A stretch of DNA of 64,000 bases from an uncultured bacterium (GCA_965371175.1 CBDUXI010000006.1:13973-77972); one strand, 5' to 3'; numbered from the stretch's first letter, positions 1 through 32,681 are shown. The notes: a model not told the origin generated them from the letters alone. Made by a program: numbers and translations.

Positions 1-1134
1 GAACTGCTCAAAGCCATGGTGGAGGACGCGCCGTTCGTGGTGAACTGGCTCGATTCCCTGGGCGTGCTGTTCGACCGGGACGCCGACGGCAATCTGAAGG
101 TCAAAAAAGGTGGCGGCACCAGCCGGGCGCGTCTTTTGGCCTGTAAGGACTACACCGGCCTCGACATGATGCGGGTGCTCAAGGACACGGTGCTCAATGA
201 AGAGGCCATCAAGATCATTGAGTTTGCCCCCGCCATCGAACTGCTCACCGACGGCAACGGCACGGTCACCGGGGCGGTATTACAAAACCTGGATGTAGAC
301 CGGCGCATCGTGGTCAAGGCCAAGAGCGTCATCATGGCCACCGGCGGCATTGGCCGTCTGCACATTCAGAACTTTCCCACCAGCAACCATTTTGGCGCCA
401 CCGGCGATGCCCTGCCCCTGTGCTACCGGGTGGGGGCCAGACTGGCCTTTCCCGGCACCTTCCAGTACCACCCCACCGGGGCCATCTATCCGGAGCAGAT
501 GGCGGGCCTGTTGGTGACCGAGGCCATTCGCTCCGGCGGTGCACACCTGATCAACAAAAACGGCGAGCGGTTTGTAAACGAACTGGAAGCGCGCGATGCG
601 GTCTGCGCCGCCATCATCCGCGAATGCGCCGAAGGGCGCGGGGTGGATACCCCCATGGGACGGCAAGGCGTATGGCTGGACGTTCCGGTGATCGACGCGA
701 TCAACGGCGAAGGCGTGGTCACCCGGCGTTACCCGGGCATGCTCAGAAAGTACGGGCGCCACCACATCGACATCGCCACCGAGCCGGTGCTCATCTTCCC
801 CACCCTGCACTACCAGAACGGCGGCGTGGCCATCGGCGTCAACGGCGAGACCGAAATCCCCGGCCTGTACGTGGCGGGCGAAGCGTCCGGCGGCGTGCAC
901 GGCACCAACCGGCTCATGGGCAATTCGCTGCTGGACATCATCGTGTTCGGCACCCGCGCAGGCAATGTGGCGGCGCAGCGGGCCAAAGACACCCAGTTCG
1001 GCAAGCTCACCCTGAAGCATCTGGATGCCTTTAACGCAGACATGGCCAAGGCGAAGGTCAAGCCCGACATCACCTCGCCCATGCTGCTGCCCGATTATGT
1101 GCGCCGCCCGGAAGAAGAAGCGGGCGCGGCCTAG
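1..1134 (+). CDS. Partial (N-terminus outside window) FAD-dependent succinate dehydrogenase/fumarate reductase-family flavoprotein (or L-aspartate oxidase-like), C-terminal ~370 aa
   Basis: Frame open from nt 1. Motifs 'FQYHPTG' and 'LHYQNGGVAIG ... LYVAGEASGGVHGTNRLMGNSLLD' match the conserved HPT and H-Y-x-MGG regions of SdhA/FrdA/NadB flavoproteins. Followed 58 bp later by sucC. Confidence 0.75.
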   Translation, partial: ELLKAMVEDAPFVVNWLDSLGVLFDRDADGNLKVKKGGGTSRARLLACKDYTGLDMMRVLKDTVLNEEAIKIIEFAPAIELLTDGNGTVTGAVLQNLDVDRRIVVKAKSVIMATGGIGRLHIQNFPTSNHFGATGDALPLCYRVGARLAFPGTFQYHPTGAIYPEQMAGLLVTEAIRSGGAHLINKNGERFVNELEARDAVCAAIIRECAEGRGVDTPMGRQGVWLDVPVIDAINGEGVVTRRYPGMLRKYGRHHIDIATEPVLIFPTLHYQNGGVAIGVNGETEIPGLYVAGEASGGVHGTNRLMGNSLLDIIVFGTRAGNVAAQRAKDTQFGKLTLKHLDAFNADMAKAKVKPDITSPMLLPDYVRRPEEEAGAA

Positions 1135-1191
1135 CAATATCCGGCCCGGCAGGGCCATGTAAATCAGCACGGTAAGGAACAAAACGACGAC

Positions 1192-2352
1192 ATGAACGTT
1201 CACGAATACCAGGCCAAGGAACTTCTTAAAACATACGGCGTCACCGTGCCCGAAGGCGGCGTGGCGGTCACCCCGGCGGAAGCCGCCAATGTGGCCCGCG
1301 AACTGGGCGGCCCCGTGTGGGTGGTGAAAGCCCAGATTCACGCAGGCGGGCGCGGCAAGGCGGGCGGCGTCAAGGTGGTGAAATCCATCGAAGAGGTGAA
1401 AGCCGCCACCGAAAAAATGCTGGGTATGACCCTGGTGACCCATCAGACCGGACCGGAAGGCAAGGAAGTGCAGCGGGTCTACGTGGAAGACGGCTGTGAC
1501 ATTGCCCGTGAGCTGTATCTGGGTGCGGTGATCGACCGGGAGCACGGGGGCGTGACCATCATGGCCTCCACCGAAGGCGGCATGGAGATCGAGGAGGTAG
1601 CGGCAAAAACGCCGGAAAAAATCCTCATGGAGCCGATCGACCCGGCGGCGGGCCTGCAAGGGTTCCAGTGCCGCAACCTGGCCTTCAAACTGGGGCTCGA
1701 AGGCGCGCAGATCAAGGCGTTCTCCAAGTTCATGAGCGCGCTGTACACCGCCTTTGTGGAGACCGACTGCGCGCTGATGGAAATCAACCCGCTGGTGGTC
1801 ACCGGTGCAGGCGACATCATCGCGCTGGACGCAAAAATGAACTTCGATGCCAACGCCCTGTACCGGCACCCGCAAATCGAAGCCCTGCGCGACCTGACCG
1901 AGGAAGACCCGAAAGAGCTGGAAGCCGCCCGCCACGGGCTGAACTACATCGCCCTGGACGGCAACATCGGCTGCATGGTCAACGGTGCGGGGCTGGCCAT
2001 GTCGACCCTGGATATTATTCAACTAAAAGGCGGCACCCCCGCCAACTTCCTGGATGTGGGGGGCGGCGCCAATGCCGATCAGGTGCGTGAGGCGTTCAAG
2101 CTGATCCTTTCAGACAGCAAGGTGAAGGCGCTGATGGTCAACATCTTCGGCGGCATCATGCGCTGCGATATCATCGCGGAAGGCATCATCGAGGCGGCCC
2201 GGCAGGTGGACATCAACGTGCCCCTGATCGTGCGGCTGGAAGGGACCAACGTGGAACAAGGCAAGAAAATGCTGGCGGAAAGCGATGTGAAAATCATCGC
2301 CGCAGACAACCTCGACGACGCCGCCGAAAAGGCCGTGGCGGCAGTGGGGTAA
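1192..2352 (+). CDS. sucC: Succinyl-CoA synthetase (ADP-forming) beta subunit
   Basis: N-terminus '[17 protein letters not shown]' with full-length ATP-grasp domain and ligase-CoA domain. 386 aa. Adjacent to sucD. Confidence 0.95.
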
Positions 2353-2362
2353 GGGAAATATC

Positions 2363-3235
2363 ATGAGTGTACTGGTTAACAAACATACCAAGCTGATCTG
2401 TCAGGGCTTCACCGGAGCCCAGGGCACGTTTCATTCCGAACAGGCCATCGCCTACGGCACCAAAATGGTGGGCGGCGTCACCCCCGGAAAGGGCGGCATG
2501 GAGCATCTGAACCTGCCGGTGTTCAATACGGTGGAAGAAGCGGTGCTGACCACCAGCCCGGACGCCACCATGATCTATGTACCGCCGCCTTTCGCGGCCG
2601 ACGCCATCATGGAAGCGGCGGCGGCGGAAATCCCGCTGATCGTCTGCATCACCGAGGGTATTCCGGTGCTCGACATGGTGAAGGTCAAACGCTTTCTTTC
2701 CGGCAGAAAAAGCCGCCTGATCGGCCCCAACTGTCCGGGCGTCATTACCCCGGACGAGTGCAAGATCGGCATCATGCCGGGGCACATTCACAAGCGCGGC
2801 TCCATCGGCGTGGTCTCCCGTTCCGGCACCCTGACCTATGAAGCCGTCAAGCAGACGGCGGACGCGGGGCTGGGGCAGAGCACCTGCATCGGCATCGGCG
2901 GCGATCCGATCAACGGCACCGACTTTATCGACTGTTTAGAGATGTTCGAGAACGACCCGGAAACCAAAGGCATCATCATGATCGGTGAAATCGGCGGCTC
3001 GGCGGAGGAAGAGGCCGCAGAATATATCAAGGCCCACGTCAAGAAGCCGGTGGTGTCGTTCATTGCCGGGGCCACCGCGCCGCCGGGGCGGCGCATGGGC
3101 CACGCCGGCGCCATCATCGCCGGTGGCAAGGGCGGTGCCGAAGATAAATTCAAGGCGCTGGAAGCCGCCGGTGTCGCCACCGTCCGCAACCCGACCCAGC
3201 TGGGCACCCGCATGGCAGAGGTCATGAAGGGCTGA
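2363..3235 (+). CDS. sucD: Succinyl-CoA synthetase alpha subunit
   Basis: '[45 protein letters not shown]' and a conserved 'MGHAGAII' phosphohistidine region. 290 aa, 10 bp after sucC. Confidence 0.95.
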
Positions 3236-3256
3236 CGCCCGCTTGTTCAGGTCGCC

Positions 3257-4219
3257 ATGATCTACGCCACCGGATTTTACAAAGATAAGCGCTACGCCTC
3301 GATCGACGAAGTGGTCGCCGCAGCCACCAAGTGGCTGGAGGATGGCAAAATCGGCATGGTGGTGGGGTACGGCCGTCAGAGCCCGTTTACCGATCTGACC
3401 ATGCCCACCTTTGTGAATCGGGCAGAAAAGCTGGCCGACGAACTGGTGTGGAACCGGCTGTGCGATTACAACCTGCTCAACTACGCCAATCTGGGGGCGG
3501 GAGAGGCCCGGCGTGGCAACGGTGGCGTGGCCATCATGCTCAAGCCGTGCGAACTGCACAACCTGGACATCCTCATGGAAGAGGGCGACATGTCGAACGT
3601 GAATCACGACAACGTGATTCCCATGGTCATGGCCTGCGCAGGCGTGTGCGAAACCGAGGGGCTGAACGCCTATACCGAAGGCGATGCGGTGCTGAAGGTG
3701 CAGACCAAGTGCCTGGACTGCCCGGAATATGTGAGCGCCCACGGCCTCGAAAAAGTGGAGGCCGAACGGGCCGAGCGCGAAGATTACCAGCGCTACACGC
3801 GGCAGATTGAGGACGATTCCGAAATCGACTGGGGCACCACCCTGGACAAGTGCCTGCACTGCTACGCCTGCCGCAACGTCTGCCCGTCGTGCTACTGCAC
3901 CGACGGCTGCCCGGCGGATGAGGCCGCCACCGCCCATGTGAGCAACGCCCTCAAGGTCATCAAGGGCATCGACGCCAGCCGCCAGATGATCTACAACCTG
4001 GTGCGCACCTGGCATATTCAGTCGCGCTGCTCCGAGTGTCAGGAGTGCGAGCGGGTGTGCCCGGTGCACATTCCCATCATGGCGCTCAAATCCAAGCTGG
4101 GCCGGGATTTCGACGGCGAAGGCAGCCCCGGTGACGTGATTGGATTTTTGACCAACTTCGCCGCAAAAAACTTGGTTTCCAAAAAGCCGGACGCGGAACC
4201 GGCGGAGAACAAGCCGTGA
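3257..4219 (+). CDS. Fe-S protein with two ferredoxin-type CxxCxxCxxxCP motifs; N-terminal region possibly FrhB/FdhB-like
   Basis: 'CLHCYACRNVCPSCYC' and 'CSECQECERVCPVHIP' are 4Fe-4S motifs. 'KPCELHNLD' resembles the G-x-PC signature of FrhB-family proteins (weak). The stop overlaps the next gene's GTG start (GTGA). Confidence 0.6.
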   Translation: MIYATGFYKDKRYASIDEVVAAATKWLEDGKIGMVVGYGRQSPFTDLTMPTFVNRAEKLADELVWNRLCDYNLLNYANLGAGEARRGNGGVAIMLKPCELHNLDILMEEGDMSNVNHDNVIPMVMACAGVCETEGLNAYTEGDAVLKVQTKCLDCPEYVSAHGLEKVEAERAEREDYQRYTRQIEDDSEIDWGTTLDKCLHCYACRNVCPSCYCTDGCPADEAATAHVSNALKVIKGIDASRQMIYNLVRTWHIQSRCSECQECERVCPVHIPIMALKSKLGRDFDGEGSPGDVIGFLTNFAAKNLVSKKPDAEPAENKP

Positions 4220-5304
4220 GCCCGGCCGGCTTTATCCGGCCCGAAAACCTGTGGCGCATGGTGGATGTACTCCACGGTCAGGGAATTCGGGTGGTGGCCC
4301 CCACCCAGGTGGAAGCGCTGTGCCTGTTTGAGCCGGTAACCGCCTCCGATCAGGTGGTCACCGACTATCTGCTGCCGCAAAACACGTTCAAGGAGTTCCT
4401 GTTCCCCAAAGAAGAGCAGGTGTTTACCTGGATCAAAAACCCGGACGGCAGCTTTGCCGTGACCGAGCCGCCCCGTAATTTTCCCGAAACCGTCATTCTG
4501 GGCGCACGCCCGTGCGATTCTGCCGGTATTGCCATCTCGCTCACCTCGGTCTTTTCGGGCGAAAAGTTCGGTCATGAAGACCCGCTGTATATGGAGCGGC
4601 TGGCGGCCACCACCATCGTGTCTATCTCGTGCGATGCCCCCGACATTTCGTGCTTCTGCACCAGCATGGGGCTGGGGCCGGACGACCCCAAAGGCAGCGA
4701 CGTGCTGATCACCCAGACCTGCGAGGAATCGCCGGTATTCGTGGTGGAGGTGTTCGGCAAAAAAGGCGAGGCGTTCGCCCGCAATCTGGGCGACCTGCTG
4801 GAAACCGGTAGAAAGCCGAAAGAGCTGGCCGACCTGCGTGAGCAAGCAGGAGAGACCGCCCGCAAAAAGTTTGTGCGGGTGTTTGATATTGAGGGCGTGA
4901 AGGCGTTTCTGGACAACCCGGATAACTTCGACGATGAGCTGTTCGCCCGGCTGGGGCAAAAGTGCATCTCCTGCGGAGTGTGCACCTTTGAGTGCCCCAC
5001 CTGCCACTGCTTTGATTTAAAAGATGCCGGCACCAAAGAAGAGGGCGAGCGCATCAAGATATGGGATTCGTGCCAGCTGCCGGCCTTTACCATCCACGCC
5101 ACCGGCCACCAGCCGCGCCCGGAGCAGTGGGAGCGGTATCGCAACCGCTTTATGTGCAAGTTCAAATACTACGAAGATACGTTTGAAACCCAGGGTTGCA
5201 CCGGCTGCGGCCGCTGCGTGCGCGACTGCCCGGTGCATGTGGACATCACCAGCTATGCCATGCAGTCGAACAAAAAACAGCAGCTGATCGAGATTGGCTC
5301 ATGA
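4216..5304 (+). CDS. AsrA/HydB-like Fe-S subunit (anaerobic sulfite reductase subunit A / sulfhydrogenase beta family)
   Basis: 'ARPCDSAGI', 'CISCGVCTFECPTCHC' and 'CTGCGRCVRDCPVHV' align with the conserved Cys clusters of AsrA-type proteins. GTG start overlaps the upstream stop; its own stop overlaps the next ATG (ATGA). Confidence 0.8.
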   Translation: MSPAGFIRPENLWRMVDVLHGQGIRVVAPTQVEALCLFEPVTASDQVVTDYLLPQNTFKEFLFPKEEQVFTWIKNPDGSFAVTEPPRNFPETVILGARPCDSAGIAISLTSVFSGEKFGHEDPLYMERLAATTIVSISCDAPDISCFCTSMGLGPDDPKGSDVLITQTCEESPVFVVEVFGKKGEAFARNLGDLLETGRKPKELADLREQAGETARKKFVRVFDIEGVKAFLDNPDNFDDELFARLGQKCISCGVCTFECPTCHCFDLKDAGTKEEGERIKIWDSCQLPAFTIHATGHQPRPEQWERYRNRFMCKFKYYEDTFETQGCTGCGRCVRDCPVHVDITSYAMQSNKKQQLIEIGS

Positions 5305-6215
5305 GTTCCCCGGTACTTAATTCGACTTCCTCGCCGACCCTCTCGTCAGCCCCCACCGGGGCCAACCTGTACCTGCCCAAACTGGTGCGGATCGACAAGA
5401 TCATCCACGAAACCCACGACGTACGCACCCTGCGGCTGGTGTTTGTGGACGAGGCCGACCGCAAGGCGTTTTCCTACAAGGTGGGGCAGTTTGGTGAATT
5501 CTCCGTGTTCGGGGTGGGGGAGGCCACGTTCAATATCTCATCGTCCCCCACATGGGACGGGTATTTCGAGTGCTGCTTCCGCACCGTGGGCGAGGTGACC
5601 CGCGCCCTGGCCCTGCACAAGGAAGGCGATATCATCGGCTTTAGAGGGCCGTACGGCAATTGGTACGACCTGGAAAAAATGCAGGGCAAAGACCTGATCT
5701 TTGCTGCGGGCGGCATCGGTTTTCCGCCCATCCGCTGCCTGGTCTGGAACGTGCTGGCCGAGCGCGAAAAATACGGCTCCATCACCGTGGTGCACGGGGC
5801 GCGTACCCACAACGATCTGGTCTATCAGAGCGAACTTGACGAGTGGTCAAAACGGCGCGATATGCACGTGGTGAAAACCGTCGACCCCGGCGGTGAGCCG
5901 GAAGACTGGGACGGCGAGGTGGGGTTTGTGCCGTCGGTCATCGAAGAGAAAGTCCCGTGGATTCTGGAGCGGGAGGGCAAGGGTCTCAAAAACGCCATGG
6001 CGTTTGCCTGCGGCCCGCCGGTGATGACCAAATTTGTCATCGCCGCCCTCACCGGCATGGGTTTCGGGCTGGATCAAATCGGCCTCACGCTCGAAAACAA
6101 GATGAAGTGCGCGGTGGGCAAGTGCGGACGGTGTAACATCGGCAGCACCTATGTGTGCCTGGACGGCCCGATTTTTACCGCCGATCAGGTGGCATTATTA
6201 CCGGATGATCAATAG
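5301..6215 (+). CDS. AsrB/HydG/PyrK-like FAD/NAD(P)H-binding oxidoreductase subunit with C-terminal 2Fe-2S
   Basis: Ferredoxin-NADP reductase-like fold with 'GGIGFPPIRCL', and a C-terminal 'CAVGKCGRCNIG' 2Fe-2S motif typical of AsrB/sulfhydrogenase gamma/PyrK. ATG at 5301 overlaps the upstream stop. Confidence 0.8.
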   Translation: MSSPVLNSTSSPTLSSAPTGANLYLPKLVRIDKIIHETHDVRTLRLVFVDEADRKAFSYKVGQFGEFSVFGVGEATFNISSSPTWDGYFECCFRTVGEVTRALALHKEGDIIGFRGPYGNWYDLEKMQGKDLIFAAGGIGFPPIRCLVWNVLAEREKYGSITVVHGARTHNDLVYQSELDEWSKRRDMHVVKTVDPGGEPEDWDGEVGFVPSVIEEKVPWILEREGKGLKNAMAFACGPPVMTKFVIAALTGMGFGLDQIGLTLENKMKCAVGKCGRCNIGSTYVCLDGPIFTADQVALLPDDQ

Positions 6216-6263
6216 GCACGGCGAACAGGAACGACCATGAGAGAGCGGCAAGAAGGAGGGGGC

Positions 6264-6794
6264 ATGAAAATTAAAGACCTGTCGATTCTGGAGGTGCGCA
6301 TCTTAAAGCACCTGTACTGCCAGAACCCGCACCGCAATTACCGTGACCCGTCCCTGCGCTTTAAATACGAGCGCGGGCTGGAACCCACCTCCACCAACGG
6401 CATGAAGCTGCGGTTACTGCTGTCCGGGGTCAAGAGCGGCTCCGACCTGCGCCAGCGCCTGAACCCGTCGGTCTGCCTGCCGGGCGGCACCTACGGCTTT
6501 ATCTACAGCCAGTTGAAAGCCCCGAAGATTGTGGACGGCACGCGCACGCTCATGACCGAGTCGTTCAAGCGCAGTTATCACGACACCCTGCGTATTTTGA
6601 TTGCCAAAGGCCTGGTGGACGGCTTTATCGCCGGCTACGACATCGCCGAGGGGGAAGACGGCTTTCGCGCCCCGGTCCCGGCCCGCTGGCAGAAATCGGA
6701 CGGCGACTGCGTACTGGTGAACGTGAGCCTGACCGAAGACGGTTTTCAGGTGGCGAGAGGCATCTTTTTGCAACTGGCCGAGGAGGGGGATTGA
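6264..6794 (+). CDS. Hypothetical protein
   Basis: ORF with a strong RBS (AAGGAGGGGG) before the ATG at 6264. No recognisable motifs. Confidence 0.5.
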   Translation: MKIKDLSILEVRILKHLYCQNPHRNYRDPSLRFKYERGLEPTSTNGMKLRLLLSGVKSGSDLRQRLNPSVCLPGGTYGFIYSQLKAPKIVDGTRTLMTESFKRSYHDTLRILIAKGLVDGFIAGYDIAEGEDGFRAPVPARWQKSDGDCVLVNVSLTEDGFQVARGIFLQLAEEGD

Positions 6795-7393
6795 GCCGTA
6801 ACCCCACGCGGCTTTACGTCACCCGCCACGGGCAGACAGACGCCAACCTGCAACGGCGGGTGCAGGGCCAAGGCGATACGCCGCTAAACGCCACCGGCGT
6901 GGCGCAAGCCGGGGAACTGGCGGATTATTTTGCGGGGAAAACAGTGGATGCCATCGTCTCGTCCGACCTGCCCCGCGCCCGGCAAACGGCGGAACTGCTG
7001 GCCGAACGGTTAAAAATTCCCGTCAGCTACCACCCGGAGTTGCGCGCCCGGCGCATGGGCGATTACGAAAATAAAACCCACGCAGAGCTTGTGGCCGCCG
7101 ATCCGGAAAATTTCAAACGGTTAAAGCACGATCCGGATTTCGTGCCGCCGGGCGGGGGCGAATCCACCCACATGCTGATGGAGCGCATGGCCCCGTTTAT
7201 TCAGGCGACTGCGGAGCGGCATGCGGGCGGGGCGGTGATCGTGCTGTCGCATCACAAAATCTGCCAGTTGATTGTGGCGAAAATCGCCGGGGGCGAAGTA
7301 ACGCCGATCCCCAACGCGCGGCCCGCCATCGTGATCTATGATGAAACCGGCTACCGTATCCAACCACAGGAGGTCCCCCATGGCGCTGCTTGA
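6791..7393 (+). CDS. Histidine phosphatase family protein (phosphoglycerate mutase-like)
   Basis: 'VTRHGQTDAN' RHG catalytic motif. TTG start preceded by an AGGAGGGGGA RBS. Overlaps the upstream stop. Confidence 0.8.
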   Translation: MSRNPTRLYVTRHGQTDANLQRRVQGQGDTPLNATGVAQAGELADYFAGKTVDAIVSSDLPRARQTAELLAERLKIPVSYHPELRARRMGDYENKTHAELVAADPENFKRLKHDPDFVPPGGGESTHMLMERMAPFIQATAERHAGGAVIVLSHHKICQLIVAKIAGGEVTPIPNARPAIVIYDETGYRIQPQEVPHGAA

Positions 7394-7937
7394 AACCGAA
7401 AACATCCCCATGGGCACGCCGTGCCCGGACTTTGAACTGCCGGGGGTGGACGGCAAAACCTACAAATGCTGTGACGACTTTGCCGGCTCCGACGTGCTGG
7501 TGATCATGTTCATCTGCAACCACTGCCCGTACGTGATCGCCATCGAAGACCGCTACGTGGCCCTGGCCCGGTATTTTGAACATGCCAGCGTGCAGTTTGT
7601 GGGCATCTGCTCCAACGACCCGGACGACTACCCGCAGGACAATTTTGAAAACATGAAAAAACGGGCGCAGCAGAAGGGGTACGGCTTTCCGTATTTGCAG
7701 GATTTGTCGCAACAAACGGGCAAGGATTTCGGCGCGGTCTGCACCCCGGATATTTATGTGTACGACAAAAACCGGGGCCTCGCCTACCACGGCCGCTTCG
7801 ACGATAGCTGGCAGGTGCCGGAAAAGGTGAAGGAAGAGAGTTTAAAAATCGCCATCCAGACCCTGCTGGACGGCGGCGCACCGGGGGCGGATCAGGTGCC
7901 GAGCATGGGGTGTTCGATCAAGTGGCGGCGGGGGTGA
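7380..7937 (+). CDS. Thioredoxin-like/redoxin family protein
   Basis: 'MFICNHCPYV' thioredoxin-fold CxxC-type active-site region. AGGAGG RBS before the ATG at 7380. Confidence 0.7.
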   Translation: MALLETENIPMGTPCPDFELPGVDGKTYKCCDDFAGSDVLVIMFICNHCPYVIAIEDRYVALARYFEHASVQFVGICSNDPDDYPQDNFENMKKRAQQKGYGFPYLQDLSQQTGKDFGAVCTPDIYVYDKNRGLAYHGRFDDSWQVPEKVKEESLKIAIQTLLDGGAPGADQVPSMGCSIKWRRG

Positions 7938-7968
7938 TGTTCGTTTCAGACTTTCAATGAGAGGCATT

Positions 7969-8361
7969 ATGGACACTCTTCACATTCACCTGTTTAAAAG
8001 TAGTTTTGGACCATTTATTAGCCTCTTGAATAAGCATGCTATTGCTTATAGCATGAGAGAGCAGCGCGCTGGCGTACCAATGGCGTCCTCTTCCGGAGTA
8101 GTTGAGGTTCTGACGTCACCAGCAATGTGGGGCGCACTTGCTATAGTGATTCGCACATTCATAAAGAGTCAACATGATCGCAAGGTAATAATCACTACAA
8201 AAGACAATGACATCATCCATGCCGAAGGGCTTACAGCTGCTGAGTTGGAGAGCGTATTGGAACGTTCACGGAGCTTTGCCGCCATAGAAACGGGAAAGAT
8301 TCCAAATAATCCAGATTCAGAAAAGGTTGAAGTTATCGGTAGGAATTTACCAAATGGGTAG
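7969..8361 (+). CDS. Hypothetical protein (gene A of the AT-rich island); start could be 7957
   Basis: ORF in a strongly AT-rich segment, with a GAGAGG RBS before the ATG at 7969. One hydrophobic helix ('SPAMWGALAIVIRTFI'). No known motifs. Confidence 0.5.
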   Translation: MDTLHIHLFKSSFGPFISLLNKHAIAYSMREQRAGVPMASSSGVVEVLTSPAMWGALAIVIRTFIKSQHDRKVIITTKDNDIIHAEGLTAAELESVLERSRSFAAIETGKIPNNPDSEKVEVIGRNLPNG

Positions 8362-8878
8362 CGAATTTAGTGATTTTCTGGCATTCCTAACAGGTGTGGG
8401 TGTTACGCTCGTTGTAGGGTTGTTTACAGGGCGTGCAATTTATAGAGCCACGGCAGATATCAAGAAGCCGGATGTTGTTGGTGAAGATGAATGGGAAAAG
8501 TTCTGGAGTAGTGGGGGAAAGAGAGGGAAAGTTTGGATTGGCGTGTTGGAACGGATCCTGTTTTTCTTGTGTATTTGGAGTGGTTCTATAGCCCTTATTG
8601 CGGCGCTCCTTGCGTTTAAAGTTGCGACAAAATGGCGATCGTGGGATGTAATCGTCGGCTTGGCTAATTCTTTTTCGGGAGGTAAAAAAAGCCCGAGCGC
8701 GGAGGGTGCGACACCTGAATCGGGCGGATTCGTTCACCTAACCGCACGGAAGGCTATCGGATCTCGGGTTGTTACCAGTTCCCTTGTTGGGACAATGTGG
8801 AACCTGTTGGCGGCTTTTATTGGGGTTGGTTTTGGACAAGAGGTATTTCCAGCGGCGCTGAAATGGTTACAGTGCTAG
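8354..8878 (+). CDS. Hypothetical multi-pass membrane protein (gene B of the AT-rich island)
   Basis: The ATG at 8354 overlaps gene A's stop (ATGGGTAG). Predicted TM segments: 'FLAFLTGVGVTLVVGLF', 'ILFFLCIWSGSIALIAALLAF' and 'MWNLLAAFIGVGFG'. The intervening loop is Lys/Glu-rich. Alternative TTG start at 8327. Confidence 0.55.
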   Translation: MGSEFSDFLAFLTGVGVTLVVGLFTGRAIYRATADIKKPDVVGEDEWEKFWSSGGKRGKVWIGVLERILFFLCIWSGSIALIAALLAFKVATKWRSWDVIVGLANSFSGGKKSPSAEGATPESGGFVHLTARKAIGSRVVTSSLVGTMWNLLAAFIGVGFGQEVFPAALKWLQC

Positions 8879-8968
8879 CCCGTAGGTCGGGCTGAATACA
8901 ACACACCCCACCACCACCAAACCGGGCAGCCCGCCCCGGCGGGCAAATGCACAACGGGGGACAAGCCC

Positions 8969-9478
8969 ATGATCATTTACCGCGAAGAAGAACCGGGCGA
9001 TCACGACGCCATTTTCCAGATCAACCAGCGGGCCTTTGGCGGCGACGAAGAGGCGCGGCTGGTGGATGCGCTGCGTAAACAGAAACTTGTGATTACCTCC
9101 CGCGTGGCGGAGACGGTGACGAATGGGGCCGGGGTGGTGGGGCACATTCTGTTCAGCACGCTGCCCATCAAGGGAAAAAATAAAACCATCAAGGCGGCGG
9201 CGCTGGCGCCCATGGCGGTGGACCTGGAATGGCAGGGGCGGGGCATCGGCTCCAGGCTGGTGCTGGACGGGCTTGCGGAATGCCTGGAGCGGGGGGTGGA
9301 GGCCGTTATTGTGGTGGGTCACCCCAGGTACTACCCCCGCTTCGGCTTTTCCGCCGCCATGGCCGAAAACCTTTCCGCCCCGTTCTCCGGCGAGGCGTTC
9401 ATGGCCGTGGAACTTGTCCCCGGCGTGCTTTCCGGCTTTTCCGGCACGGTAAAATACCCGTCGCCGTTCGGCTGCTAG
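8969..9478 (+). CDS. GNAT family N-acetyltransferase
   Basis: 169 aa. 'QGRGIGSRLV' acetyl-CoA-binding motif in a GNAT-sized protein. Confidence 0.85.
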   Translation: MIIYREEEPGDHDAIFQINQRAFGGDEEARLVDALRKQKLVITSRVAETVTNGAGVVGHILFSTLPIKGKNKTIKAAALAPMAVDLEWQGRGIGSRLVLDGLAECLERGVEAVIVVGHPRYYPRFGFSAAMAENLSAPFSGEAFMAVELVPGVLSGFSGTVKYPSPFGC

Positions 9479-9644
9479 GGTGGTAACCCTTCGACTTAGC
9501 TCAGGGCGAACGGTTGGAAGGGCGGGCCGCATCGGTGCTTTGGGCACGCGCCCCCTGATCGGTGCTGAAAAAATCGAAAAAACCTGATAGGTTGTGACCG
9601 GCCCGGACGACGCGAATCAAACCGCCGGATACGGAGAAAAAAGG

Positions 9645-10172
9645 ATGGGGATATTCCCGCGACTGTTTGCGATCGGGTGCGTACTGCTTCTGACCTCCTG
9701 CTCGTTCTACCGGGCGGCGGACGAAGCCTATCAGCGCGACATGGACACGGTGCGGGTGCAGCACGCTCACCGCATTGTGGAGATACTGGAAGCCTATTAC
9801 GCCAAACAGGGGTATTACCCGCTTGCCGATCGGCTACAAAAAGGGCGCGTGATTGAGGTGTTTATCACCCCGCGCCCCATCCACAAGGATATTTTACGGC
9901 AGGTGGCATCCGTTCCCCTGGACCTGCACCCGTTTGACCTGCTCCAGCAAGAGGTGTTCCGGGTGCTGGGAGAAGATGCAGCACTGCCCACCGAACCGCA
10001 AAAAGTGGCCACCTTTGCCCCCAACTACCACATCTATCACCTGACCCCCCGCAGCTACTGTGTGGGGGTGCACCTCTATTTTCCGCGTGAGGGTGCCCAG
10101 CCTGTACGGGGCGGCGGCAGCCAGTACCACAAATACGATTTGTGCAGGAATATTGAGGGAACCGGGGGGTGA
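9645..10172 (+). CDS. Hypothetical lipoprotein
   Basis: N-terminus 'MGIFPRLFAIGCVLLLTSCSF' has a lipobox. GGAGAAAAAAGG RBS. Confidence 0.6.
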   Translation: MGIFPRLFAIGCVLLLTSCSFYRAADEAYQRDMDTVRVQHAHRIVEILEAYYAKQGYYPLADRLQKGRVIEVFITPRPIHKDILRQVASVPLDLHPFDLLQQEVFRVLGEDAALPTEPQKVATFAPNYHIYHLTPRSYCVGVHLYFPREGAQPVRGGGSQYHKYDLCRNIEGTGG

Positions 10173-10261
10173 ACTGCCGCCGGTCCGGGGGCAGGCCGCT
10201 TCAGGCCTGCCCGAAGGCAGGCTCAGGGTTCCGCACGAACAGCTTGCTGGTCTTCCCCCCA

Positions 10262-10298
10262 CAAAAAAAGGGCCACGGAAAACCCGTGGCCCTTTTTA
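10262..10298. terminator. Bidirectional rho-independent terminator
   Basis: Hairpin GGGCCACGG-AAAAC-CCGTGGCCC flanked by an A-tract and a T-tract. Sits between convergent genes ending at 10172 (+) and 10326 (-). Confidence 0.7.
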
Positions 10299-10325
10299 GC
10301 CCGTTATGAACGTGGCCTCCCGTTC

Positions 10326-10598
10326 TTAATGCGTCTGCTCCATAAAATAGATCTCCGGCATGCCCTGCACCCCGGCGGTCTGCATGGCATTTTTGAGCTC
10401 TTCCGACTGGGCGAACGTGTGGGCCTCTTCCAGGTCGTTCCAGTCAAATAATATGGTGACCATGTTCGGGTCGTTTTCGTCCTGCATCACCATGTCCGAC
10501 GTGCACCCGGCCTCCAGCCGGTCTTGCGCTTGGGCATCGTATGCGGGCTTCCAGCTGGCGTAGTCGGCTACCTTGTGGCGGATCAGTACTTGCGACAT
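10326..10598 (-). CDS. Small hypothetical protein (possible ABM/Dabb-like alpha+beta fold)
   Basis: 90-aa ORF with an RBS-like 'AGGAGGAGAG' on the minus strand just upstream of the start. Family assignment is tentative. Confidence 0.5.
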   Translation of the reverse strand: MSQVLIRHKVADYASWKPAYDAQAQDRLEAGCTSDMVMQDENDPNMVTILFDWNDLEEAHTFAQSEELKNAMQTAGVQGMPEIYFMEQTH

Positions 10599-10717
10599 GA
10601 CTCTCCTCCTACCTTGGAAAAATAATCAAATTGTGGGAACGGCTCGCATTATGCGCCCGGATTTTTCCGGTTTCAAGGGGGTGGGATGGATGGGGTTTGT
10701 CGGTGATTTGGGAGCAT

Positions 10718-10812
10718 CCCCTCACCCCCGCCCTCTCCCACAAAGGGGAGAGGGGGCAGACGGGCTTTTTCTCCCTCTCCCCGTTTGTGGGAGAGGGCAG
10801 GGGTGAGGGGGA
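10718..10812. repeat. REP/BIME-like composite palindrome: two ~40-bp units in inverted orientation
   Basis: The unit 'CCCCTCACCCCYGCCCTCTCCCACAAA(C)GGGGAGAGGG' occurs once forward and once reverse-complemented around a TTTTT centre. Each unit contains its own hairpin (CCCTCTCCC-ACAAA-GGGGAGAGGG). Intergenic. Confidence 0.75.
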
Positions 10813-11071
10813 GCCCGGCCCGTTCCCGTGGCCCTTGGGCCGCAAGCCAAACGGCCTCCCGGTTTGCGTTTTCTACCCCATTCCTCTATAAAACGGGCGT
10901 CAACTTAAAGCTGCAAAATTCAGGTGACGGGGCGGTGTGGGGGCAAGTTTCTTGTGTCCGTATGGTCAAAAAAACCGTGGCCTGAATGTGTCGGGTACAG
11001 GAGTCTGTCGCCGCAGCTAAAATAAGTTAAACATCTGTTTTAATTGAAATTTAAGCAAAGGGGTAGTTGCG

Positions 11072-12031: not shown

Positions 12032-13690
12032 CTAGTCGTCGCCTGACACCGGCCCGGCCAGCGGGTTGGGCATTAGATATATCTGCTGAGAAATATACGG
12101 AAGGTCCTCCATCAGGTCTGGATGGACGGACACAAAAGCAATCCGGCTGCCATCGGTGCTGATCTCCGGGTTCCAAGCGTGGCGGGTTAATTCAATCGTT
12201 TCGCCGGTCTCCCGGTCAAACAGGTGTATGCGCCTCTGACGCACGTTGTGGTTAATATGGTTCAGGGCGAACACGGTAAAGTGCCCATCCCCACTTATAG
12301 ATAACGATAATCCGTATCCTTGATAGTCGGGATACCGGTCGGTATCCACGGTCATGCGGGTGATTTTCCCGGTGGCGATCTCTTCCAGGTAGGCATCGAC
12401 CACGCCGTTGGTATCGGCGGGGTCCAGGGGCGCATTGGTAAAGTAAGCGACCCAGGCACCGTCGGTGCTGATCCGGGGAACGTTCACCCTGGCGGGGGTG
12501 CCTTCCGGCCCTTTGGCCAGAATGCGGGCGCTATCGGTTTCCATGTCGTGCAGGACAAGCACCGATCTGGAGAAGGACTCACTCCTGGCGGTAAAGAGGA
12601 GCCATCGACCGTCTGCGCTGGTCTGTGCTGCCGAGCTATAGCTATAGGAGTCCCCATCCGGAAGCGTTTGGGATGGGTCTATGACCTTGTGTGTTTGCAG
12701 GTCGCGCTGGCGGATAAACGGGTAGTCCCAATTCCCCTCGGGGGTCTGTACCTGTTCCAAAAAGGTTACGTACCGGCCATTCCCACTGAGGTCGGCATGT
12801 GTGGCACCCAGGGTGCTTGGCTGGCCGGGTTTGTCCTGGCTTGCCACCTCGGTTTTTCCGGAACCGCGGTCGTGAACCAGTATGTTGGGGATGTAGTAGG
12901 GGTTCCCGCTATCTGAAAACCGGGTAGCTCCGGCAACATATGCCACGCGATCACCATCGTCGGACAGTGAAGCCGATTCCCAGGGAATGTGGCCCGCAAA
13001 GCCGTCTGGAATTGGCATGCGTTCGGTTGTGCCACGCTCCAGATCGCGCACAATGACAAGGCTGTACTCGGTTCGGGACTCCGGCACTGAGGGAGGTGCC
13101 AGATTGAGGGCGTAAGAAATAAACGCCACCCGGTCGCCCGTTCCATCTATGGCAAGCCCCCACATCGGTCCGATGGCCGGCTCCAGTTCATCGCTCACGC
13201 TCACCCGCTCGATGTCCGCAGGAATGGGGGGTGTGGGGGTTGGCGGCGGCCCGATTGTAACAGTCACCGTGCCCGGTTCCGATGTGCCGTACCGATCCGT
13301 AAGCGTGTAGGTAAAGGTGTCGACCCCCTCGGCCCCCGGATGTGGGGTGTACTCAAAGTGGTTGTTATCGTAATAGTAGCTCCAACTCCCGGCCGTCCGT
13401 AGCGTGGCCGTGCCCAGCTTGCCGTTTTCGGCAATGGCATAGGAGGGGCGTGGGGTATCCGGGGTGTGCGGTATTTTTTCTTCCGGGGAGGGATCGCTCA
13501 GGCTACCTCCCAGGCCACCGGTTACGGCATAACCCGCCGCGGTATAGGCCTCCAGGTCTATCACCGTTGGCTTTACTGTACTGCCCCCGCCGTTGTTACT
13601 TCCCCCACACGCGGTAAGCGAAAACAGCAGCAACACCGAAAGAAAGTTGAAAACGGATTTACGCCCCGGCAGGTCACACAAAAATTTCAT
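12032..13690 (-). CDS. Lipoprotein with an Ig-like/cadherin-like domain and PD40/TolB-type beta-propeller repeats
   Basis: Lipobox 'LLLFSLTACGG' with a Gly/Ser linker. 'VDTFTYTLTDRYGTSEPGTVTVTIGPPPTPTPP' is Ig-like. Recurring 'ISxDG...VAF/YVS' motifs suggest PD40-like blades. Paralog of the next gene. Confidence 0.75.
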   Translation of the reverse strand: MKFLCDLPGRKSVFNFLSVLLLFSLTACGGSNNGGGSTVKPTVIDLEAYTAAGYAVTGGLGGSLSDPSPEEKIPHTPDTPRPSYAIAENGKLGTATLRTAGSWSYYYDNNHFEYTPHPGAEGVDTFTYTLTDRYGTSEPGTVTVTIGPPPTPTPPIPADIERVSVSDELEPAIGPMWGLAIDGTGDRVAFISYALNLAPPSVPESRTEYSLVIVRDLERGTTERMPIPDGFAGHIPWESASLSDDGDRVAYVAGATRFSDSGNPYYIPNILVHDRGSGKTEVASQDKPGQPSTLGATHADLSGNGRYVTFLEQVQTPEGNWDYPFIRQRDLQTHKVIDPSQTLPDGDSYSYSSAAQTSADGRWLLFTARSESFSRSVLVLHDMETDSARILAKGPEGTPARVNVPRISTDGAWVAYFTNAPLDPADTNGVVDAYLEEIATGKITRMTVDTDRYPDYQGYGLSLSISGDGHFTVFALNHINHNVRQRRIHLFDRETGETIELTRHAWNPEISTDGSRIAFVSVHPDLMEDLPYISQQIYLMPNPLAGPVSGDD

Positions 13691-13825
13691 TACACGTCCC
13701 CTGGTTTCCCCCATCAAGCCCAGTCCGGAACGGGCTGCCTTGACGGCTGATTTGATTAAACCATCATCAATTTTATCAGGATTCTCCCATCTGGCAAATG
13801 GTGGCCGGACGGGCGCGGCCTGATG

Positions 13826-15526
13826 CTAATCCACGTCGCCGTCCACCGGCTTGCCACCCTCTCCGGCCAGCGGGTTGGGCACCACATAGATCTGGCTCGG
13901 GTTATCCGGGCTGTCCGCCGCAAGTTCCGGGTTATCGGACAAAAAGGTGATCCAGTTACCGTCGGTGCTGATGACCGGATACTGGGCATTGCGCATCAGT
14001 TCGATGGCTTCGCCGGTTTCCCGGTCAAACAGGTGCACCCGGAACTGGCTTATGGTTTGGTTGATGTGCTTCATGGTGAATACGGAAAAACGTCCGTCAC
14101 CACTGATGGAGACCGATAGTCCGAGTGGTGGAAGCCTGGGAAACCGGTCGGTGTCTACGCGCATAAGGGTGATTTTCCCGGTGGCAATCTCTTCCAGGTA
14201 GGCATTGGTTGCACCGCTGATATTGGTGGGGTCCAGGCTGTTGGCTGAGAAATATGCGGCCCAGGCACCATCGGCACTGATGGTGGGATAGAAAGCCTGC
14301 GCCGGAACGCCCGTCGGCCCCACGGCTAGGGGGCGGTCGCTGCCGTCTGCCGTGTCGTGCAGGAAGACCACATCCCCTTCGTGACCTGCGGCGTGTGCCG
14401 AAAAGGTGATGAACCGCCCTTTCCCGCTGACCTGGGGCACCCACCCGGCGGGATAGTAGGTTGCTCCATCAAGAACGGGATGGGGCAGGAGCCTGGTCGT
14501 TCCTTTTTTCAGGTCGCGCAGGTAGATGCCCGTTCCATACGTTACGGGATCGTCCAGGAGATCGGTCGCAACACTAAAAAAAGCTACGTACTGGCCACTG
14601 GCGCTCAGGTCGGCAAAAAAGGAACTGCTGTTTCCCGGGTCGCCGGCTGTGTTGCGGCTTGCCACCTCGGTTTTTCCGGACCGGAGGTTGTGGACCAATA
14701 CGTTCCAGACGTAGGTTTGATAGTAATCGTTGTCTCCGAGCGGAATCCCGGAAGCAGAAAATGAAATACGGTGTCCATCGTCGGATAGTACGGGAGTACC
14801 CGCTTCGTACTTTGCGGCGTACTGCGTGTCTCTCACCTGCACCCGTTCGGTGGTTCCGCGATCCAGGTCGCGTACAAAAATCTGGCGGATAGCAGGTTCG
14901 GGCGTATCCGGCGTCAGGTTGGTGGCTTCGGAAATAAATGCCACGTGCCGCCCCGTGCCGTCCAGCGTAGGGCGCCAGACCCCGCCGTTTGCCGGTGCAA
15001 GGTCGTCGCTTACGCTCACCCGCTCGATGCCCGCAGGGATCGGAGGTGCGGGTGCGGTTTCCGGCCCGATGGTCACGGTGACAATGCCCGGCTCGGATGT
15101 GCCGAACGGATCCGTGAGCGTGTAGGCGAACGTATCCACCCCCGCAGTCCCCTCATGCGGGGTGTATCTAAAACGGGTGATCTCGCCAGTCCACTCAAAG
15201 TAGACCGTTGTGAGCTTAACCGTGCCCAGTTCGGGACCTTCGACGATGTTGTAGCTGTAGGGGGAGGAAATTGGACTTCGCATGAAGTCTTCCAGGTCGG
15301 GCGGAAAATTCAGTTCGTTGGTGTGGCCTTGCAGGATGCCGATTACCGAGTAATCCGAAGGGGTGTATGCCTCCATATCTTCCACGATGGGCGGGAATGC
15401 TTCGGAGCTGCCGCCCCCGCCGCTACTGCTGCCGTTCAGGCCACACGCGCTCAACGACACAAAAAACAGCAGCAGGATGGCGTTAAAAAAAGTTGTACGG
15501 ATCGAACGGTTACACAAAAAGGGCAT
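13826..15526 (-). CDS. Paralogous lipoprotein with Ig-like domain and PD40-type beta-propeller repeats
   Basis: Same architecture as the upstream gene ('VDTFAYTLTDPFGTSEPGIVTVTIGPETAPAPP') and a conserved C-terminal 'PNPLAG' tail. Lipobox 'FFVSLSACG'. Start placed at 'MPFLC' (the ORF extends to 15598). Confidence 0.75.
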   Translation of the reverse strand: MPFLCNRSIRTTFFNAILLLFFVSLSACGLNGSSSGGGGSSEAFPPIVEDMEAYTPSDYSVIGILQGHTNELNFPPDLEDFMRSPISSPYSYNIVEGPELGTVKLTTVYFEWTGEITRFRYTPHEGTAGVDTFAYTLTDPFGTSEPGIVTVTIGPETAPAPPIPAGIERVSVSDDLAPANGGVWRPTLDGTGRHVAFISEATNLTPDTPEPAIRQIFVRDLDRGTTERVQVRDTQYAAKYEAGTPVLSDDGHRISFSASGIPLGDNDYYQTYVWNVLVHNLRSGKTEVASRNTAGDPGNSSSFFADLSASGQYVAFFSVATDLLDDPVTYGTGIYLRDLKKGTTRLLPHPVLDGATYYPAGWVPQVSGKGRFITFSAHAAGHEGDVVFLHDTADGSDRPLAVGPTGVPAQAFYPTISADGAWAAYFSANSLDPTNISGATNAYLEEIATGKITLMRVDTDRFPRLPPLGLSVSISGDGRFSVFTMKHINQTISQFRVHLFDRETGEAIELMRNAQYPVISTDGNWITFLSDNPELAADSPDNPSQIYVVPNPLAGEGGKPVDGDVD

Positions 15527-15891
15527 ACACAAGTACTTGTTCTGCTCAGCTTCCGGCCACGTCCGGAAGAGATAGGGGGTGTTTTCCAACAAAAACAAGC
15601 CGATACAGGCTGTTTAGACGGGAAACCAACCCTAATTTTAGCAGATACCGGAAATCCGGCCATCCCTCATTCGAGTGAAATTGTGGCCCTTGCTTTGGCG
15701 GCAGGCTCCCCGAAAACAGGGGGTGTAGCGCTTCGGTGGCACCGTGCCGCAGCCAAAAACGGGACGGTTTTTAAAAAAACTTACCCCATGACGGTGGTGT
15801 GCCGACAGGAGCCGGTGAAGGCCGTATAAGACCACGCGGCCCGGTGCTTTATTTCGACCGCGTACCCCGCCTGGGGACAGATGAGGTAACC

Positions 15892-18846: not shown

Positions 18847-20139
18847 TCAGCGTTTGTCTATCGGCTGGTAGTCCCGGGCGGTGGGGCCGGTATATAGCTG
18901 GCGCGGGCGGCCGATGACCGAATCCGGCTCGTTGATCATCTCCATCCAGTGGGAAATCCACCCCACCGTGCGCCCCAGGGCGAACATGACGGTGAACATG
19001 TTGATGGGGATGCCGATGGCCTTGAGAATGATGCCGGAGTAAAAATCCACGTTGGGGTACAGCTTGCGGCTGATGAAATACTCCTCCTTGAGGGCTTTTT
19101 CTTCCAGACGCATGGCCAGCTCCAGTTGTGGATCGTCAATGCCCAGGGCGTCCAGCACCTTGTGGCAGGCTTCGCGGATGATGGTGGCCCGGGGGTCGTG
19201 GTTTTTGTATACCCGGTGGCCGAAGCCCATGAGCCGGAACGGATCGTCCGGGTCTTCGGCGCGGTCGATGACGCCATCGACGTTTTCGATCCCGTCGATC
19301 TGGTCGAGCATGGCCAGCACGGCTTCGTTTGCGCCGCCGTGGGCAGGCCCCCACAGGGTGCCGATACCTGCCGAGATGCAGGCAAACGGATTGGCGCCGG
19401 AAGAGCCCGCCAGACGCACGGTGCTGGTGGAGGCGTTCTGTTCGTGGTCGGCATGCAAAATAAAAATCTGGTCCAGGGCTTTCGCCACCACCGGGTTGAT
19501 CTCGTATTCCTCGGCGGGTACCCCGAACATCATACGCAGGAAATTTTCGGCGTATCCCAGGCTGTTGTCCGGGTACAAAAACGGCTGACCTTGAGAAAAC
19601 TTGTAGCTCCACGCGGCGATGGTGGGCATCTTGGCGATCAGCCGGTGGGCCGAAATTTCCCGGTGTTCGGGGTTATGGATGTCCAGCGAGTCGTGATAGA
19701 AGGCCGAAAGCGCGCCCACCACGCCCACCATGGTGGCCATGGGGTGAGCATCCCGGCGGAAGCCGTTATAAAAATTTTTGAGCCCCTCGTGGATCATGGT
19801 GTGCTGGGTGATGTTCGTACGGAACTCCGTGAACTGGTCCTCGGTGGGCAACTCGCCGTACAGCAGCAGGTAGCACACTTCCAGATGGGAGCTGTGCGCG
19901 GCCAGTTGCTCAATCGGGTAGCCCCGATACATGAGGATGCCCTTTTCGCCGTCGATGAAGGTGATCTTGCTTTCGCAACTGGCGGTGGAAAGGAACCCGG
20001 GGTCGTAGGTAAAGTGCCCGGTCTGGCTGTACAGCTTGCGGATATCGATGACCCGTGGACCCACGGAGGCATCGTAGATCGGCAATTCCACGGGCTTGCC
20101 GCCCTTGTCGATGGACAGGCTGGCGTGTTCGTCGCTCAT
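18847..20139 (-). CDS. gltA: Citrate synthase (type II, Gram-negative hexameric type)
   Basis: '[50 protein letters not shown]' is canonical GltA. Start taken at 'MSDEHASL' (AAGGAAGGG RBS). The ORF extends to 20232. Confidence 0.93.
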
Positions 20140-20405
20140 GGAAACCCTTCCTTGGAGATCAGTGTTTTCACCGAAGGTCGCCGTCATGGCACCCCTTTGC
20201 CCGGCATATCCTTCTTCGGCCTTATCGACCATCCGGGAGTGGACGATGAGGGTTTTTCCTTAAGAAGTGATGGTTTATCTTGCCCCATTTTCATAGCGAG
20301 CGCCATTCGCTGAACCCGCACGGCGGGTTTTCCTGCAATTGCCCCTTTCCCCGGCACGGGTAGAGACGGTATCCTGACTCTTTTGCCCACACTCTCTTTA
20401 AGGGG

Positions 20406-27605: not shown

Positions 27606-27621
27606 GAAAAGAACCCCGCCC

Positions 27622-29438: not shown

Positions 29439-29442
29439 CCGC

Positions 29443-31770: not shown

Positions 31771-32681
31771 CAGACGGCCCTTATCAACGGGGTGATCAAC
31801 ATGGCCAGCAAAATCACGGCCCCGGCGGGCACATGGGCACGAAATAAAGCAAACGCCTGTGCGCGGCTGAGCCCTGCCTTTACCTGTATGCCCTGACGGA
31901 TAAAGTAAATGCCCGCCGCCGCCACCACGGTTAAATAAAGCGGTCCCATGCCTTCGCGCGCGCCCGCCATGGCCAGCAGCAGGCAGGTGACCAGCAGGCA
32001 GCCGATGATCCACGCCCAGGCGGCGGACCCGAACAGGATGGCGGACGACTTCACCCCCACTTTTTTATCGTCTTCCATATCCTGAATGGCGTAGATGGTG
32101 TCGTAGGCCACGGCCCAGAAAATGGTGGCGGCAAACAGCAGGGCGGGGGTGAGGGCCAGTTCATTTTTGACCGCTGCCCATGCCATGAACGCGCCCCAGC
32201 CGAAGGCCATACCCAGAAACGCCTGGGGAATGGACACAAACCGCTTGGTAAACGGATACAGCACCGCCAGCCCCAGCCCGCAGGCGGCCAGCACAATCGT
32301 GAGCCGGTTTAAGTGCGCGATCAGCAGCACGGAAATTCCCACCAGCACGGCAAAGGCAAACAGCGCCACGGGCACGGACAGGCGGCCGGACGCCAGCGGG
32401 CGCAGACGGGTGCGGGAAACCAGCGGGTCAATCTTGCGGTCGGCCACGTCGTTGATGATGCAGCCTGCACTGCGCATCAAAAAAGCACCCACGGTAAAAA
32501 TAATCAATAAACGTGGATCGGGCCGCCCGCCGCCCGCAAGGGTCAGCGCCCACAGAGACGGGATCAACAGCAAAAAAGTGCCCCACGGGTTTTTGACCCG
32601 CATCAGGTCAAGCAGGGCGGATACGGTTTTCCGAATGCCGTGGGCCGAGCCTGGGTCCGAAGTGTCGAGTGAGCTATTCAA
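31770..32681 (-). CDS. ubiA: 4-hydroxybenzoate polyprenyltransferase
   Basis: UbiA-family '[27 protein letters not shown]' (NDxxDRxxD) motif. Eight or more TM helices. Confidence 0.9.

Follow-up and report, generated by a model that had tools for sequence, protein, structure and literature searches.

A candidate soluble NAD(P)H:fumarate oxidoreductase in Nitrospirota, encoded with succinyl-CoA synthetase and an Flx-type module without Hdr partners

The fumarate reductase (FRD) of Hydrogenobacter thermophilus, which acts in the reductive tricarboxylic acid (rTCA) cycle, is soluble, NADH-dependent and made up of several subunits (PMC13147460). Bifurcating Flx-Hdr-FRD systems have been proposed for Pseudoclostridium thermosuccinogenes (PMC7282089) and for Ca. 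Endoriftia, Thioflavicoccus and Sedimenticola, the Sedimenticola locus being the rTCA cluster treated by Rubin-Blum 2019 (PMC6315080). A 2026 survey (PMC13147460) found only A or AB-type FRD subunits in Leptospirillum and several Nitrospira, which are without a suitable quinol; the Nitrospirota A/AB genes are not co-located with an Flx-Hdr-like partner, and according to the survey the phylum must harbor novel types of FRD. Beyond that survey, a literature search for an FlxCBA-FRD arrangement in Nitrospirota returned nothing. The locus considered here is at the 5′ end of a 64,000-nucleotide stretch of DNA from an uncultured bacterium (GCA_965371175.1, CBDUXI010000006.1:13973-77972), the whole of which is referred to below as the window. 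It encodes an FrdA-like flavoprotein, SucC, SucD and a trio of FlxC-, FlxB- and FlxA-like proteins, and with a probability of roughly 55% the operon specifies succinyl-CoA synthetase and an NAD(P)H:fumarate oxidoreductase that is soluble and does not depend on the membrane.

Gene calls bear out six plus-strand genes at the coordinates given in the initial annotation. The 3′ 70% of the frdA-like gene (1..1134) is truncated by the 5′ edge of the window and is followed by sucC, for the β subunit of ADP-forming succinate-CoA ligase (1192..2352; NCBIfam NF001913, 597 bits, cut-off 370), and sucD, for its α subunit (2363..3235; NF004230, 478 bits, cut-off 336), with both products exceeding the equivalog cut-offs. 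Then come the genes for an FlxC-like Fe-S protein of 320 amino acids (aa) (3257..4219), an FlxB-like, sulfhydrogenase-beta-like or AsrA-like poly-Fe-S protein (4216..5304) and an FlxA-like, sulfhydrogenase-gamma-like or AsrB-like FAD-NAD(P)H-2Fe-2S protein (5301..6215), the last with an alternative TTG start at 5196. The intergenic gaps are 57, 10 and 21 bp, the last separating the sucD stop from the flxC-like start, and the trio is joined by a GTGA overlap (flxC-like to flxB-like) and an ATGA overlap (flxB-like to flxA-like). The 21-bp gap and the two overlaps, reported in the initial annotation, were seen again in the sequence, and the 4-nt overlaps are kept in relatives. No terminator-like site was found between genes on the plus strand across window positions 1-8000. 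An independent contig, L018, reached via cluster member P0176, is 96% identical to window 1-7569 with identical gene order, so assembly error does not account for the arrangement. It also adds 2 kb 5′ of the window, encoding two Fe-S proteins, B1 (241 aa) and B2 (226 aa), and the complete 538-aa flavoprotein. Hence B1, B2 and the 5′ end of frdA are located just outside the window, and the full operon order is B1-B2-frdA-sucC-sucD-flxC-flxB-flxA.

The window fragment of the flavoprotein is 100% identical to residues 162-538 of the full-length protein P0059, which has a helical N-terminal extension of about 88 aa. It matches Pfam FAD_binding_2 at 1.8e-53, and its best NCBIfam model is TfrA (1.2e-78), with NadB and SdhA/FrdA models scoring close behind and all of them far under their cut-offs. 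Alignment with Escherichia coli SdhA/FrdA spans the FAD and capping domains, and the SdhA/FrdA alignment stops near model position 420. The protein ends about 50 residues past the GNSLLD motif and hence has no Succ_DH_flav_C domain, and there is no PF02910 match. The catalytic His, Arg, His and Arg align with those of E. coli FrdA/SdhA in an 87%-identical orthologue, whose catalytic motifs are also present in the window fragment, and the best fold match of the AlphaFold2 model (pLDDT 83.6) is E. coli FrdA (1kf6_A). At the position of the His that binds FAD covalently there is Asn in 15/15 full-length family members aligned (the window fragment starts beyond this site) and also in Sedimenticola FrdA, where the GDSNT motif is identical; the FAD is accordingly predicted to be non-covalent. 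In E. coli FrdA, His44 variants with non-covalent FAD favour fumarate reduction over succinate oxidation, and the Asn would be expected to bias the present enzyme in the same direction. The covalent-FAD His and Succ_DH_flav_C domain that mark classical complex II flavoproteins are both missing, and the features of the short TfrA-like FrdA subfamily (about 535 aa, N-terminal extension, GDSNT, a B partner and flx genes in the cluster) are all present. On these comparisons the flavoprotein is a member of a distinct TfrA-like subfamily and, with the B subunits, corresponds to the putative soluble FRD encoded in rTCA-type clusters of Nitrospirota.

That no SdhB-type gene lies inside the window was pointed out before and is correct; the same does not hold upstream, where the two paralogous B genes, non-classical and SdhB/TfrB-like, adjoin the flavoprotein gene. 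The B1-B2 pair is immediately 5′ of frdA in L018 and in every relative whose contig extends there. Alignment of B1, B2 and their relatives reveals twelve invariant Cys residues, as Cx4Cx2Cx17C and two CxxCxxCxxxC motifs, from which one 2Fe-2S and two 4Fe-4S clusters are predicted per protein. Having two full CxxCxxCxxxC motifs, they differ from classical SdhB with its 2Fe-2S, 4Fe-4S and 3Fe-4S clusters and its membrane anchor. Similarity to the dhsB and TfrB NCBIfam models is weak (TfrB 30 bits, cut-off 385) and a PDB search with B2 gave CdhA ferredoxin domains as its best matches and no SdhB, so that the label ‘SdhB-like’ is owed to architecture and the weak NCBIfam matches. Profile search detected no CCG domain in B1, B2 or elsewhere in the cluster. 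An upstream sdhCDAB or frdABCD operon with an anchor, named earlier as the finding that would speak against a soluble enzyme, was not found, there being two soluble Fe-S proteins instead. No membrane anchor gene is present in the window, in upstream L018 or in the relatives' loci, and transmembrane prediction gave no convincing segment in any cluster protein.

The FlxC-like protein has two CxxCxxCxxxCP motifs and seven more conserved Cys residues and is 27-31% identical to FlxC of hdrCBA-flxDCBA clusters. With its AlphaFold2 model (pLDDT 87.5) the top Foldseek match is FdhB (7bkb_E, 3.7e-9), a subunit of the Fdh-Hdr complex, followed by FrhB. An earlier guess that it is FrhB-like is thus right at the level of fold; the Pfam and NCBIfam profile search gave no FrhB_FdhB or CCG match, and an HdrD-type CCG domain, for which a check had been suggested, is not detected by Pfam. 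The FlxB-like protein (Pfam Fer4_22, 2.7e-31) matches the beta subunit of Pyrococcus furiosus sulfhydrogenase I (SH-I; 9nez_B) at 1e-24 with its Cys motifs aligned, and is 34% identical to clostridial and 44% to Sedimenticola FlxB. Its FlxA-like neighbor, with NAD_binding_1 and DHODB_Fe-S_bind domains, aligns with SH-I gamma (9nez_C; 4e-49), C-terminal Cys motif included, and is 40% identical to clostridial and 53% to Sedimenticola FlxA. Both align with the clostridial proteins over nearly full length, and their closest outside relatives are those of Sedimenticola. The names AsrA-like and AsrB-like, given initially, stand as statements of homology, since the match to SH-I beta/gamma and AsrAB is near full length with conserved cluster motifs. 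As family assignments they do not, the equivalog scores being far under cut-offs, at 132/690, 113/750 and 110/323 bits (score/cut-off) for the FlxB-like protein against sulfhydrogenase beta/AsrA models and 173/600 and 170/289 bits for the FlxA-like protein against sulfhydrogenase gamma/AsrB models. FlxC/FlxB/FlxA-like fits best, and the FlxC relatives and FlxB/FlxA matches, in the usual C-B-A order, mark the trio as a homologue set of FlxC-FlxB-FlxA.

What normally accompanies such proteins is missing. FlxD (MvhD-like, Pfam FlpD) gave no tblastn match in the 64-kb window and is absent from the relatives' syntenic loci; HdrA, HdrB and HdrC are absent from the window and from 10 kb on either side in relatives where contigs allow. 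FlxA, FlxB and FlxC of the Flx family are therefore represented here, and FlxD and an adjacent HdrA/HdrBC are not. Nor does the cluster contain hydrogenase alpha or delta, AsrC or sulfite reductase partners, in which it differs from SH-I and AsrABC. The absence of a CCG domain, hydrogenase and sulfite reductase leaves FrdA as the one catalytic partner encoded there. The homology of the trio to NAD(P)(H)-linked FlxC/B/A and SH-I beta/gamma proteins, with Cys motifs kept, supports an electron-input role.

About twenty close homologues of the FlxC-like protein have 65-99% identity, after which the next matches fall abruptly to about 30%. Those with a named source all come from Nitrospirota or Leptospirillia metagenome-assembled genomes (MAGs), and an orthologue is present in only six species-level GTDB genomes. 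In four further species-level MAGs, whose proteins are 55-91% identical, synteny is complete; in a fifth, represented by the short contig L014, the order is identical from sucC onward. The syntenic order is ThyX, B1, B2, FrdA, SucC, SucD, the trio, a 176-185-aa protein, His_Phos_1 and AhpC/TSA-like. Location of the trio beside sulfur genes, which had been put forward as grounds for abandoning an FRD role, was never seen: every trio orthologue (65-99% identity) whose contig is long enough to reveal its neighbors adjoins frdA-sucCD. The 185-aa conserved protein encoded directly 3′ of the flxA-like gene (6237..6794, plus strand) is without a Pfam or NCBIfam match and syntenic in five MAGs at 55-73% identity; no subunit role is claimed for it. 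In all, three genes with little or no spacing follow the flxA-like gene (6237-7937, plus strand) and are syntenic across relatives, the His_Phos_1 phosphatase gene having a TTG start that overlaps the preceding stop and being itself overlapped for 56 nt by an AhpC/TSA-redoxin-like open reading frame (ORF). Leptospirillum ferriphilum is reported to carry a thioredoxin gene after sucD (PMC2607301). The ThyX gene 5′ of B1 (L003 3023-4585; syntenic in L001, L010 and L013) encodes about 520 aa, some twice the usual length, with a Thy1 domain in the first ~230 residues and then a weak winged-helix match.

Linkage of this FrdA type with Flx genes is seen well outside the lineage. A metagenome scan with the FlxC family gave 80 loci (L019-L098), many probably from related gut organisms so that the counts are of non-independent events. 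HdrA is present in all 47 with enough upstream sequence and FlxD matches appear in the locus maps; B-like and FrdA-like genes come directly after flxA in 30 of the 44 with enough downstream sequence. The FrdA of 32 Flx-linked loci is 48-53% identical to that considered here over 97-98% of its length, N-terminal extension included. In L031 the order is LysR, malate dehydrogenase, fumarase, hdrB, hdrC, hdrA, flxD, flxC, flxB, flxA, B, FrdA and an Asp-Al_Ex transporter, a layout that agrees with the ‘succinate operon’ of P. thermosuccinogenes (PMC7282089). In Sedimenticola (L099) it is hdrC, hdrB, B, FrdA, hdrA, flxD, flxC, flxB, flxA, adjoining PFOR, korAB and aconitase. The link between the FrdA subfamily and Flx genes in unrelated bacteria is independent support for Flx-FRD coupling. 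Two types of Flx-Hdr cluster can be distinguished, hdrB-hdrC-hdrA-flxDCBA, usually followed by B and FrdA, and hdrC-hdrB-hdrA-flxDCBA, mostly without them (exceptions L051 and L074). Locus L008 was considered as a second Hdr-less FRD-Flx case and rejected, its flavoprotein being AprA-like above the NCBIfam cut-off. There (3500-10846) AprA-like and AprB-like genes precede a polyferredoxin-MvhD fusion, FlpD and flxCBA beside a Na_sulph_symp transporter, and so another SdhA-superfamily enzyme is paired with an Flx module.

Set against the mdh-fumC-hdrBCA-flxDCBA-frdBA type of P. thermosuccinogenes and gut bacteria (PMC7282089; L031), the operon shares an FrdA (~52% identical) with N-extension and no C-terminal domain, a B protein predicted to carry 2Fe-2S and two 4Fe-4S clusters, and the flx C-B-A order. 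It differs in having two B paralogues rather than one, in being without HdrA/B/C and FlxD (MvhD), in an FlxC only ~30% identical and in placing the flx genes after sucCD instead of before frdB. The tfrAB plus flxABCD-hdrABC clusters of Ca. Endoriftia, Thioflavicoccus and Sedimenticola (PMC6315080; L099) are in rTCA context, with FrdA 52%, FlxA 53% and FlxB 44% identical; they have a single B, Hdr and FlxD interleaved with the FRD genes and a proposed mechanism of bifurcation to ferredoxin, in all of which the window locus is different. In Nitrospira, where the block is called a ‘putative soluble FRD’ (PMC13147460), two B genes, FrdA (60-64% identical) and SucCD are orthologous; there they come after aclBA-acn, a context that ties the B1-B2-frdA-sucCD block to the rTCA cycle, and Flx genes are absent from the cluster. 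Methanothermobacter TfrAB is likewise a soluble FRD; TfrA is the best-scoring model and TfrB is similar to B1 and B2 in its N-terminal Fe-S part, yet the scores are far under the cut-offs for TfrA (350 bits, cut-off 718) and TfrB and the CCG thiol-oxidizing domain is absent. By their defining features the locus is outside classical complex II, TfrAB, NadB, sulfhydrogenase and AsrABC, and what appears novel is an Hdr-less, FlxD-less, two-B, sucCD-linked form of the proposed Flx-FRD type. The genes for the five-subunit NADH-dependent FRD of H. thermophilus are reportedly dispersed, a result ascribed to Miura in 2008.

The idea of a soluble, pyridine-nucleotide-dependent FRD linked to SucCD had already been raised in the initial annotation, and it gains support from the anchor-less upstream region, the neighborhood of the trio and the Flx-FRD linkage elsewhere. 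The enzyme is most likely non-bifurcating, a view drawn entirely from comparative genomics. From the same comparisons we infer a physical complex of FrdA-B1-B2-FlxCBA, the direction and order of its electron flow, its NAD(P)H dependence and the use of the rTCA cycle by the window organism. NAD(P)H would be oxidized at the FAD of the FlxA-like protein, and electrons would pass by way of its 2Fe-2S cluster to the FlxB-like protein and its Fe-S clusters, and from there to those of the FdhB-fold FlxC-like protein. They would then move onward through B1 and B2, with their three predicted clusters each, to the non-covalent FAD of the FrdA-like subunit, where fumarate would be reduced to succinate. 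SucCD would convert the succinate to succinyl-CoA, the next reductive TCA step. The simplest mechanism is thus direct NAD(P)H:fumarate oxidoreduction along an extended Fe-S wire, and the FRD of this Leptospirillia lineage would have gained, or kept, a dehydrogenase module of Flx type minus the Hdr/FlxD bifurcation core.

Several points weigh against such an enzyme. An Flx module without HdrA and FlxD has no precedent among the loci examined, and Hdr and FlxD could be encoded elsewhere in the genome. The six orthologous loci are from one narrow lineage with conserved synteny, so their co-location amounts to a single evolutionary observation. The published Flx-FRD models (PMC6315080, PMC7282089) are themselves genomic or transcriptomic. 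The Nitrospira FRD core without Flx means that another donor is possible and that the trio is perhaps loosely coupled. Finally, a citrate synthase (18847-20232, minus strand, 460 aa, Pfam 5.5e-139) is encoded in the window about 13 kb from the FRD operon, which bears on whether the cycle is rTCA, reversed oxidative TCA (roTCA) or oxidative. The rest of the window, of housekeeping genes, contains no ATP-citrate lyase (ACL), citryl-CoA, 2-oxoglutarate:ferredoxin oxidoreductase (OGOR), pyruvate:ferredoxin oxidoreductase (POR) or Hdr genes.

The alternative that survives best, though unlikely, is that FrdA-B1-B2 is fed by diffusible reduced ferredoxin and that the trio, rather than belonging to the FRD, works on its own as a soluble NAD(P)H:ferredoxin (or ferredoxin:NAD(P)+) oxidoreductase to keep the ferredoxin pool in balance for rTCA enzymes. 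In Nitrospira and another Nitrospirota MAG, B-frdA is part of rTCA clusters that lack Flx genes, and the Nitrospira FRD core presumably must take ferredoxin electrons; B1 and B2 resemble ferredoxin-type adaptors, and SH-I beta/gamma-type pairs are modular. However, the contiguity of Flx genes with B-frdA in distant phyla favors direct coupling, and the uphill transfer from NAD(P)H to ferredoxin requires energy, which the trio by itself does not supply.

More doubtful is a full bifurcating Flx-Hdr-FRD, of the kind proposed for P. thermosuccinogenes and Endoriftia/Sedimenticola, with HdrABC and FlxD encoded elsewhere and the reaction 2 NADH + oxidized ferredoxin + fumarate → 2 NAD+ + reduced ferredoxin + succinate. 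The constancy of HdrA (47/47) and the presence of FlxD at other Flx loci speak for it, as does the homology of the window FrdA, FlxA and FlxB to proteins of Hdr-linked systems, and such a reaction would recover a gap of ~350 mV and supply ferredoxin for OGOR and POR. The absence of HdrA/B/C and FlxD from the 64-kb window and, where contigs allow, from within 10 kb in relatives speaks against it, these genes being otherwise always contiguous with flx. Still less probable, and a long shot, is that the six proteins FrdA, B1, B2, FlxC, FlxB and FlxA are an Hdr-independent electron-bifurcating enzyme, in which the duplicated B subunit would be a second Fe-S branch to ferredoxin and a flavin other than that of HdrA, for which FrdA's non-covalent FAD and one in the FlxC-like protein are candidates, would divide the two electrons of NAD(P)H between fumarate and ferredoxin; were it so, fumarate reduction would directly power the ferredoxin-dependent rTCA carboxylations in Nitrospirota. 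Very improbable is the alternative, already mentioned in the initial annotation, that the flavoprotein is an L-aspartate oxidase or other SdhA-superfamily enzyme with a coincidental sucCD and trio neighborhood, since, although NadB models score nearly like SdhA/FrdA (TIGR00551, 296 bits, cut-off 453; all under cut-offs) and AprA-like flavoproteins too can be paired with an Flx module, as in L008, the position of NadB Glu121, the residue for the substrate amino group, is occupied by Gly, NadB needs no Fe-S subunits whereas two are co-encoded here, ~52%-identical homologues are in mdh-fumC-…-transporter operons and others in ACL/aconitase/sucCD clusters, and the best fold match is FrdA.

Elsewhere in the window an intergenic inverted repeat (10718-10810) has 31-nt G/C-rich arms, 94% complementary, on either side of a 31-nt spacer; it holds a nested 13-nt pair, and short ORFs in several of its frames are probably not genes. 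On the minus strand, two adjacent paralogous proteins of ~560-590 aa with a Big_9 Ig-like domain (12032-15598) and a 1307-aa protein with FG-GAP repeats (54577-58500) are probably surface proteins. Also on that strand (26367-32013) are genes for a UbiH-like FAD monooxygenase, an FGE-sulfatase-domain protein and a 565-aa UbiD-family decarboxylase, which suggests quinone biosynthesis.

To return to the putative soluble NAD(P)H-dependent FRD, the route of fumarate reduction in the Nitrospirota rTCA cycle is a recognized question, and the locus offers a candidate answer as to the electron donor. It is a Nitrospirota example of an FRD core that shares its operon with an NAD(P)H-dehydrogenase module, and it defines a six-protein set. 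As a natural Hdr-less version of the proposed Flx-Hdr-FRD, it can be used as a control in asking if fumarate reduction itself requires Hdr or if Hdr matters solely to ferredoxin coupling.

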